From a virus (Duplodnaviria > Heunggongvirae > Uroviricota > Caudoviricetes): a DNA stretch of 4,167 nucleotides. The DNA lies in the IMG/VR virus record IMGVR_UViG_2660238230_000002; one strand, written 5' to 3'. Position numbers and translations under genes: made by a program. The notes below the pieces were generated by a model, which was not told the DNA's origin, made no database searches, and was given only the letters and a program-made list of their open reading frames with translations. Below, one piece after another: positions 1,442-4,167 of this stretch (within the stretch, counting starts at the first letter, position 1; every line of letters begins with the position of its first letter).

Positions 1442-1648
1442 GCCCGCTGGCAGGATGTCTGGCAGCTCTTGCCGGTGGTGGTCACTGCAGTCCCTGTCGT
1501 GTTACTGCTGGCGAATCAACTGAACCTGCTCAACCTCAGCGACAGCACCGCCCATACGCTGGGAGTGAACCTGACGAGGCTACGTTTGGTCATCAATATG
1601 TTAGTGCTGCTTCTGGTTGGTGCGTGCGTCAGCGTGGCAGGTCCGGTC
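1442..1648 (+). pseudogene. Internal fragment (about 70 aa) of a FecCD-family iron-siderophore/citrate ABC permease, possibly fecC-like; no native start or stop
   Basis: [69 protein letters not shown] carries the characteristic FecCD motif (L-x-L-G/S-D-x-x-A-x-x-LG ... hydrophobic helix ... AGPI/V) seen in FepD, FepG, FecD and BtuC. It sits in the middle of ORF 1427-1972. The frame opens only at 1406 after a TGA, and the upstream 1350-1440 is AT-rich and non-coding in appearance. Confidence 0.6.
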
Positions 1649-1878
1649 ACCCGCGATCGCCTGCTGGCATTTCTCGATCAAGAGATGTCAGATTCTCTCT
1701 CCTATCACTTCTGGAACAGTGGCGTAGGGATTCGTCCCAACGAAGAGGACGAGAAGATCGAAGGCTGTGACGATGGTGTGATCATGCATCTGAAGTCGGG
1801 TAAAAAACTGAAAGCTGACTGCCTGCTCTATGCCAACGGTCGCACCGGTAATACCGATTCGCTGGCGTTACAGAACAT
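1649..1878 (+). pseudogene. sthA: Internal fragment (about 76 aa) of soluble pyridine nucleotide transhydrogenase SthA/UdhA, fused in frame to the permease fragment
   Basis: [76 protein letters not shown] matches the central region of E. coli SthA nearly residue for residue as I recall it. Similarity stops at about 1878, after which the frame reads [17 protein letters not shown]... and ends at TGA 1970-1972. Confidence 0.8.
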
Positions 1879-2162
1879 GGAAAACGCGTCGAGCCAGTGG
1901 TTCCGCAGTCCACCGAGCAGGGCTGGTATATCGACAAATCACGCTTTGATTTCCATATCGATCCGGTGCTGAACCAGTCGGTCGGTGGAACGCACTGGAC
2001 TGCCAGCGCACGCTGCCGCTTTACCTGCAAGCCAGCTTGCTGCCGAAAGCCGAACGTGGCGAACTGGTCGCAAAAGCCATTGATGTCTTCCCGCAGTTTG
2101 TCCGTTTCCCGAATACGCTGGAAGAAGTGGCGGCGCTGGAGAGTATTGAAGAGTGCTGGTAA
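1879..2162 (+). pseudogene. Unidentified coding fragment or fragments; the downstream part is a C-terminal gene end with a TAA stop at 2160-2162
   Basis: One frame is open from 1950 to 2159 and reads [70 protein letters not shown] then stop. A second frame is protein-like across 1864-1990 ([33 protein letters not shown]). This is either one gene tail with a frameshift or two separate pieces. I do not recognise the product. Confidence 0.3.
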
Positions 2163-2411
2163 GATGGTCAGCGTGTCGCCGCGCCGCAGCTGCCGCACAT
2201 CATCAGTCCGGACAAACAGGGACGGGCTGGAGCCTTCAACGCGCACGCCCTGTCCGGCATAGCTGATATTTTCAGGGTCATCAAAAACACCACGTATCAC
2301 AGCACCGGACTGCTCACCGGATGTCATGGTGGCTGACGTTCCCATGTACCCGCGTATCGTTTCATCGGCGCAGGCAATGGCAGCATCGAACAGGTTATCG
2401 AAATCAGCCAC
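2163..2411 (-). pseudogene. FII: Lambda-type head-tail joining protein FII, N-terminal 83 codons only (3'-truncated), GTG start at 2409-2411
   Basis: The minus-strand translation MADFDNLFDAAIACADETIRGYMGTSATMTSGEQSGAVIRGVFDDPENISYAGQGVRVEGSSPSLFVRTDDVRQLRRGDTLTI matches lambda gpFII. Similarity ends exactly at 2163, and the 209-aa ORF 1782-2411 continues as antisense read-through of the neighbouring fragment. Confidence 0.85.
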
Positions 2412-2422
2412 AGCGCCTCCCG

Positions 2423-2818
2423 TTATTGCATTCTGGCCAGGCCGCGCGCTGTCATTTCGGCTGCCACACCGGCAGAGACACGGAACGCCGTTCCCGGCAG
2501 CACAAATGCCACAGCCTCATCCCGCGTGGCGTGAAGTGCATCAGTATGCAGCGTCACCAGTGCCACAACCGTGACCAGAGCAGCCGTATCAGTCACGGTA
2601 TCCGTCTGTGCTGATACCACCTCATTTTCATGTCCGGTCAGTGCATTTTCCGGGCTGACAGACGTGTCCTGACCGGCTGCGTCATCCGTGTCATCAAGCT
2701 CCTCTTCCAGCTCTGCCACACGGAGCGCCAGTTCTTCTTTCGTCCCCGTCAGGCTGACATCACGGTTCAGTTGCTCACCCAGCGACCGGAGACGGGCAAT
2801 CAGTTCATCTTTCGTCAT
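2423..2818 (-). CDS. FI: Lambda-type DNA-packaging protein FI, apparently full length (131 aa plus stop)
   Basis: MTKDELIARLRSLGEQLNRDVSLTGTKEELALRVAELEEELDD...HTDALHATRDEAVAFVLPGTAFRVSAGVAAEMTARGLARMQ matches lambda gpFI. The ATG is at 2816-2818 on the minus strand. The 11-bp gap to the FII start and 41-bp gap from the E stop match the spacing I recall for lambda. The track ORF 2423-2857 over-extends by 13 codons upstream. Confidence 0.88.
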   Translation of the reverse strand: MTKDELIARLRSLGEQLNRDVSLTGTKEELALRVAELEEELDDTDDAAGQDTSVSPENALTGHENEVVSAQTDTVTDTAALVTVVALVTLHTDALHATRDEAVAFVLPGTAFRVSAGVAAEMTARGLARMQ

Positions 2819-2859
2819 GAACTCCTCCACAGAGAGAAAATGGCCCCGAAGGGCCACGA

Positions 2860-3836
<977 letters not shown>

Positions 3837-4022
3837 TACGGCTGTCGGTTTACGTTTACGTTTTATTTATTCGGGTTCTTTAGTTTTCTATTTTTAACTC
3901 TTTTGTGTTGAGAAGCAGCCGTGTTTATTCATTTTGTCAACAGACAGGGGCGAAATCTTCTGGTGAATATAAAAGACATCAGTTTCGTTGTTCAGAAAGG
4001 CATTTTTTGTGAGATTCATATC

Positions 4023-4167
4023 AGCGCGCAAATTTCCTGTGCCATGCCCTACACCTACGGCAGTAATGATGGCAACAGCACCACGGATATTGAAAACAGC
4101 AAGCTGGTCGTGATGTTTGGTAACAACCCGGCAGAAACCCGCATGAGCGGCGGTGGCATCACTTATC
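4023..4167 (+). pseudogene. Internal fragment of a DMSO-reductase-family molybdoenzyme catalytic subunit (DmsA/YnfE/YnfF-like), running off the window end
   Basis: SAQISCAMPYTYGSNDGNSTTDIENSKLVVMFGNNPAETRMSGGGITY parallels the DmsA segment SAQIAEGLNYTYGGWADGNSPSDIENSKLVVLFGNNPGETRMSGGGVTYY. The in-frame sequence upstream (FCEIHI...) has no similarity and lies in AT-rich DNA, so the gene is not entered from its native 5' region. Confidence 0.6.

Follow-up and report, generated by a model that had tools for sequence, protein, structure and literature searches.

The segment between positions 1879 and 2162 of the DNA analysed here is a butt joint of two unrelated, internal and promoter-less pieces of Escherichia coli core genes, yjbH and yphG, and not a gene, and it almost certainly arose as an artefact of joining. 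The analysed stretch of DNA, referred to as the window, has a length of 4,167 bp and is the entire contig CDRN01001806.1 of the draft assembly GCA_000944855.1. Ordinary, known sequences from E. coli, prophage and insertion sequence (IS) elements make up the contig, and their arrangement matches a known class of chimeric contigs. We infer that the joining took place before sequencing, probably by random end-to-end ligation in vitro of short end-polished fragments. The segment is best filed as something other than a real biological feature; a new gene, a frameshift or a regulatory device is not present in it.

Identity of the two gene pieces

A nucleotide search of complete E. coli genomes, for which a panel of 5,426 was used, assigned the segment to two annotated coding sequences. 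Window positions 1881–1988 are identical in 108 of 108 nucleotides (E 2e-51) to yjbH, and positions 1988–2160 in 173 of 173 nucleotides (E 1e-86) to yphG, both on the plus strand. The first match lies within the yjbH coding sequence at 2501–2608 of reference locus L001, the second at 4001–4173 of reference locus L002, where the yphG coding sequence extends from 1941 to 5222. The yjbH piece covers nucleotides 1203–1310 of a coding sequence of 2097 nucleotides, that is residues 402–436 of 699, and the yphG piece nucleotides 2061–2233 of 3282, that is residues 688–744 of 1094. Each piece is about 5% of its coding sequence (108/2097 and 173/3282 nucleotides), and neither contains a start or a natural stop. 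The translations agree with this assignment. The 35 amino acid peptide KRVEPVV...NQSVG from the first reading frame (frame A) is an exact substring of YjbH (699 residues) that starts at residue 402, and the 57 amino acid peptide NALDCQRT...SIEECW from the second (frame B) is an exact substring of YphG (1094 residues) that starts at residue 688. Hidden Markov model searches with the two peptides returned no matches, the peptides being too short for detection by this method.

The two pieces share a single base, G1988. In the E. coli chromosome yjbH and yphG are unlinked loci which lie far apart. Of the 5,426 complete genomes, 5,415 contain the match to 1881–1988 where yjbH is located, and none has the stretch 1860–2165 in one place. 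The window carries a piece of yjbH, a gene of the yjbEFGH exopolysaccharide operon, and a piece of yphG, which encodes a DUF5107 protein, each with 100% nucleotide identity to its E. coli counterpart (over 108 and 173 nucleotides, respectively) and each different from it in being internal and outside its genomic context. A complete open reading frame in the context of yjbEFGH was not found; the yjbH piece is flanked by pieces of sthA and yphG and not by yjbG or the downstream genes.

Reading frames and the stop codon

A previous reading of this stretch from the sequence only (the sequence-only reading) had described the segment as a gene tail with coding signal in two frames, and had left open whether it represented one gene with a frameshift or an indel near 1950–1990, or two separate short fragments. 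The coding signal in both frames was borne out by the complete matches to yjbH and yphG, which are far beyond chance, and it is the two fragments that were recovered. In a frame scan, frame A (phase 1) was free of stops across 1852–2262, and frame B (phase 0) was free of stops across 1950–2162, where it closes with TAA at 2160–2162. The true coding extent is 1881–1988 only for frame A and 1989–2159 only for frame B. Of the previously noted overlap of about 40 nucleotides it holds that both frames are open from 1950 to 1988; coding in this interval is confined to frame A, and frame B, which reads yjbH out of frame here, merely happens to be without a stop.

One gene broken by a frameshift or an indel is accordingly refuted as an explanation. 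In its favour are the two open frames, which overlap and have coding character, and with a frameshifted pseudogene the window has in common that the coding signal changes its frame within a short stretch. It differs from such a pseudogene in that the two frames belong to yjbH and yphG and not to one indel-bearing gene. The genes are located at unlinked loci, the identity to each is 100% and breaks off sharply at 1988, and they are adjacent in none of the 5,426 genomes. The search of both frames which had been suggested for finding one gene hit twice led from frame A to yjbH and from frame B to yphG; since the frames are two different genes, the proposed check of the reads for a homopolymer or indel error is not applicable.

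The TAA with which the supposed gene tail ended was made by a junction. T2160 is the first base of the yphG codon TTT for phenylalanine 745, and the AA at 2161–2162 is an untemplated filler found in neither parent: yphG goes on with TT, and the lambdoid parent of the adjoining block has CC before GATGG. This TAA is not the natural stop of yphG. The gene itself has TTT at this site, and YphG extends beyond it by about 350 residues, which begin with FARHLLACFY. A 3' end of yphG with its natural stop was thus ruled out, the match being internal and ending at nucleotide 2233 of the 3282 nucleotides of the coding sequence. The truncated FII gene which had been noticed on the opposite strand directly after the stop does begin there, at 2163 on the minus strand.

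Composition of the contig

The contig has about nine equivalent joins, that between yjbH and yphG among them, a circumstance that had been missed in the sequence-only reading. In the window at least nine blocks, drawn from chromosome, prophage, plasmid and IS elements, are patched together, with sizes of about 100–1300 bp and in mixed orientation. Gene boundaries are ignored, the breaks lying inside genes, and all genic pieces are internal. The contig begins with an internal piece of ttdA (L-tartrate dehydratase alpha) on the minus strand at 1–116, which is cut by the contig start and matches 2001–2116 of reference locus L008 in 116 of 116 nucleotides. It is followed on the plus strand at 117–1349 by a complete IS5 (155–1349, 1195 bp) with a left flank of 38 bp of plasmid type; over 117–1352 this block is 99.9% identical to the IncF plasmid p3347558_2 (L009). 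The last 88 bp of IS30 together with 4 bp of the usual IS600 flank occupy 1350–1441 on the plus strand (92/92 nucleotides compared with L010 2001–2092). Next come, both on the plus strand, an internal piece of fecC at 1442–1647 (about nucleotides 574–779 of 999; 206/206 compared with L004, with matches to the FecC and FecCD profiles) and an internal piece of sthA at 1648–1878 (nucleotides 618–848 of 1401; 228/231 compared with L003). A filler of two nucleotides, GG, stands at 1879–1880 between sthA and yjbH; the parental sthA goes on with TG, and the yjbH piece comes after CA in its parent. Alternatively, sthA may run on at this place, position 1879 then being a further T>G miscall.

Downstream of the yphG piece a lambdoid prophage block FII/FI/E occupies 2163–3229 on the minus strand and is identical in 1066 of 1067 nucleotides to a prophage carried by E. 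coli ET201 (L013). It contains the 5' 249 nucleotides of FII (83 of 117 codons), the complete FI (2423–2818) and the 3' 370 nucleotides of E, the major capsid gene, and gives profile matches to Phage_attach, Packaging_FI and Phage_cap_E. The natural context of FI is the full head-tail module C-D-E-FI-FII-Z-U-V. Identity of the block to phage Lambda_2E9 is 97% only. Laboratory lambda DNA as a carrier was ruled out by the identity of at most 97% to phage records as compared to 99.9% to the prophage of wild E. coli. The block is followed on the plus strand at 3230–4024 by the 3' part of IS100, from the middle of istB up to its right end near 3836 (98–100% identical to L007 in the IS100 part), and 188 bp of plasmid-like DNA. 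The contig terminates within an internal piece of ynfE at 4025–4167 on the plus strand (nucleotides 591–733 of 2427; 143/143 compared with L011 3001–3143), which is cut by the contig end.

As to orientation, eight of the ten genic pieces are in sense on the plus strand, namely the IS5 transposase, the IS30 end, fecC, sthA, yjbH, yphG, istB and ynfE. The two exceptions, both antisense, are ttdA and the lambdoid block; a skew of eight of ten towards the same strand is expected by chance in about 5% of cases.

Occurrence and sequence support

The arrangement was found on this one contig only. None of the other pairs of adjacent blocks occurs together in the 5,426 complete E. coli genomes, a 44-mer across the junction of yjbH and yphG was absent from viral, genome and metagenome collections in an exact search, and the mosaic is absent from phage and plasmid records too. 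The same holds for the protein P0001 (window 1469–1972), an open reading frame of 167 amino acids which fuses fecC and sthA and contains FecCD and Pyr_redox_2 domains. Exact look-ups of five open reading frames across junctions gave no match. In a homology search with the frame of fecC and sthA P0001 was a singleton in a public protein collection, seen on this contig only, and it is an artefactual fusion protein. The assembly GCA_000944855.1 is a fragmented draft, the number of the contig (at least 1806) pointing to at least about 1,800 contigs. No paper in the literature collection that was searched mentions GCA_000944855 or CDRN01.

Among the chromosomal pieces sthA stands apart by three transversions at 1728, 1737 and 1748 (T>G, A>C and T>G, respectively), which are clustered within 21 nucleotides and are all non-synonymous, changing valine to glycine, histidine to proline and tyrosine to aspartate. 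The T>G at 1879 is a possible fourth change of this run. No sequence with at least 99% identity to the sthA piece was found among the 5,426 complete genomes. Natural polymorphism would mainly be synonymous in a core gene that is conserved, and confusions between A and C and between G and T are a classic class of base-calling error. Because the changes are clustered, non-synonymous and absent from all 5,426 genomes they look error-like, which suggests low-coverage base-calling error rather than polymorphism.

Insertion sequences and their flanks

Boundaries of blocks coincide with IS termini at two places only, at 1349/1350 and at about 3836. The IS5 lacks the target-site duplication of 4 bp, its left flank being CTCC and its right flank CTAA. 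Its right end adjoins the interior of IS30 exactly at CTAA, the preferred target of IS5, and on this ground the join at 1349/1350 may be a natural insertion of IS5 into IS30 or a recombinant between two IS5 copies. At the junctions 1878/1881, 1988 and 2160/2163 no IS sequence is present, and these do not have the appearance of an IS-mediated rearrangement.

An IS5 from E. coli is also contained in two phage records which are marked as unverified, Enterococcus phage IME_EF3 (L014, PQ520124.1; 3,036 bp) and Campylobacter phage B14 (L015, MG065683.1; 2,504 bp, classed as Lambdavirus). The element is probably a contamination in both. Beyond IS5 these records have nothing in common with the window.

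The 188 bp after the right end of IS100 (3837–4024) are without a close counterpart among the complete E. coli genomes, and a 30-mer from this region had no exact match in a genome contig collection. Positions 3879–4024 are 85–91% identical to IncF plasmids at a place beside the fae (K88) fimbrial operon and a gene for an EAL-domain protein, and an open reading frame of 45 amino acids is found on the minus strand at 3894–4031. The region may be DNA that natively flanks this copy of IS100 on a plasmid variant which has so far not been sequenced.

A further observation concerns the istB gene of IS100 on plasmid p1916D18-2 (L007), which is annotated there as 'AAA family ATPase'. As compared to istB of the window about 60–75 bp are missing from it, and the missing stretch lies between two copies of a 17 bp repeat (ATCTGCCGTTCG...; L007 4961–4977 compared with window 3522–3597). 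The gap in the plasmid gene looks like a repeat-mediated deletion.

Anatomy of the junctions

The junctions, about nine in number, were compared with the parent sequences with regard to microhomology, fillers and restriction sites. Six are blunt, with neither microhomology nor filler. One has an overlap of a single nucleotide (yjbH/yphG at 1988), one is located at the IS5 terminus next to CTAA (IS5/IS30), and two have a filler of two nucleotides (GG and AA). Taken together, seven to eight of nine junctions show 0–1 nucleotides of microhomology or a filler of two nucleotides. This pattern fits a blunt end-to-end joining of random fragments. The join of fecC and sthA is in frame.

Several common sources of chimeric sequence do not agree with these junctions. 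No recurrent restriction site was found at them, and the parents do not overlap by four nucleotides, which rules out an origin by restriction and ligation (Sau3AI/DpnII, NlaIII, HpaII and others; 3C, Hi-C or Pore-C). Misassembly by de Bruijn or overlap methods is disfavoured by zero microhomology at most junctions, as is template switching of a polymerase, such as in chimeras formed in multiple displacement amplification (MDA), PCR or reverse transcription.

Origin of the joins

Three features of chimeric contigs are found together in the window: its pieces come from unlinked loci and replicons, its junctions are mostly free of homology, and its arrangement is absent from independent genomes. 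If the joining occurred in vitro before sequencing, as we consider probable, the DNA of a wild E. coli, with its chromosome, prophage, plasmid and IS sequences, would have been converted to short end-polished fragments, which would then have been joined randomly end to end, either by co-ligation into one clone or template or in a ligation-mediated amplification with phi29 polymerase. An assembler would subsequently have rebuilt the chimeric molecule faithfully as a contig. Kits are available in which fragmented DNA is ligated randomly on purpose ahead of MDA (bioRxiv 10.64898/2026.03.26.714414), and randomly ligated fragments give rise to chimeras which are kept by assemblers as small contigs (PMC5015205; bioRxiv 10.64898/2026.03.26.714414). 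With the randomly ligated chimeric contigs from such procedures (DLMDA, REPLI-g FFPE and whole-transcriptome kits) the window shares short unlinked pieces, blunt joints and an arbitrary order and orientation. It differs from them by its two fillers of two nucleotides, which simple ligation does not predict. Blunt ligation with T4 ligase normally adds no such nucleotides, and this argues against joining in vitro, with the caveat that one of the two, GG or AA, is possibly a miscall. The bias of the genic pieces towards the plus strand is likewise left without explanation by ligation in vitro. Not every join need be artefactual, because the join of IS5 and IS30 at CTAA and the right end of IS100 look like natural IS boundaries. 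The open frames which span junctions, including the fusion of fecC and sthA, are accidents, and no part of the contig is expected to have a function.

It is distinctly less probable that the pieces never formed one molecule and that reads or mini-contigs were concatenated or mis-joined after sequencing, in the course of assembly, scaffolding or submission. The size of the small blocks (108, 173, 206 and 231 bp) is at the scale of read lengths, the large ones are repeats typical of mini-contigs (IS5, IS100 and the conserved lambdoid head module), the assembly GCA_000944855.1 is very fragmented, and the error-like, clustered mismatches in sthA suggest a support of about 1x. Assemblers, however, need shared k-mers or overlaps, and the parents share 0–1 nucleotides at the junctions; moreover, two junctions contain two nucleotides which come from neither parent, and spacers of N are absent. 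Still less can be said for a patchwork formed in vivo, in which E. coli DNA would have been shattered and re-joined by non-homologous end joining (NHEJ), be it in a transgene or biolistic array of a eukaryote or by bacterial end joining. Biolistic arrays have a mean fragment length of 410 bp, and their junctions are blunt in 25%, carry short insertions in 21% and have a microhomology of 1–4 nucleotides in 50% of cases (bioRxiv 10.1101/379644). Mouse transgene arrays are known to hold co-integrated E. coli genomic DNA (PMC6505145). In fragment sizes and in its mixture of blunt junctions, insertions of two nucleotides and microhomologies of 1–3 nucleotides the window resembles such shattered and re-joined arrays, a spectrum that would be expected equally from blunt ligation in vitro. 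It differs from the arrays of transgenic eukaryotes in that host, vector and transgene sequences are missing: no DNA other than that of E. coli, which might have come from a host or vector, was found anywhere in the contig. The donor, in addition, was a wild strain, as indicated by IS100, by a lambdoid prophage that is not lambda and by the DNA resembling a fae plasmid, and not a cloning strain, and the mosaic occurs on one contig only. E. coli is not known to possess Ku or LigD. Its alternative end joining is rare and dependent on microhomology, and both points count against joining in vivo. That the contig represents a real molecule, for which the total DNA of a wild E. coli was shattered and then re-stitched from pieces of 100–1300 bp in a cell, by blunt joining of the NHEJ type, either in the bacterium itself or after uptake by a different organism, we regard as a shade more doubtful yet.

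Very little credence is given to a bacterial arrangement that was selected, for example by IS-driven scrambling which creates new fusion genes. The three IS elements of the contig, the two boundaries at IS termini and the in-frame join of fecC and sthA would be in accordance with it. An in-frame join is, however, expected by chance at one third of junctions, the junctions flanking yjbH and yphG and most of the others have no IS end, repeat or homology, the pieces are internal, without starts or promoters, and the fusion frames run into out-of-frame sequence. Ligation in vitro before sequencing is thus preferred among these explanations.

Implications

For the use of such data the finding is primarily one of data hygiene. 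A deposited draft contig is a patchwork, and gene callers have made from it 'proteins' which span junctions, P0001 being an example. To readers who work from the sequence only, as well as to automated pipelines, joins of this kind can pass for frameshifted genes, gene fusions or junctions between phage and host. If the joins proved to be true in unamplified DNA, they would be a moderately interesting case of massive end joining of bacterial DNA. A re-stitching within a cell would then amount to a chromothripsis-like event with bacterial DNA, in connection with an organism, E. coli, which is devoid of canonical NHEJ.
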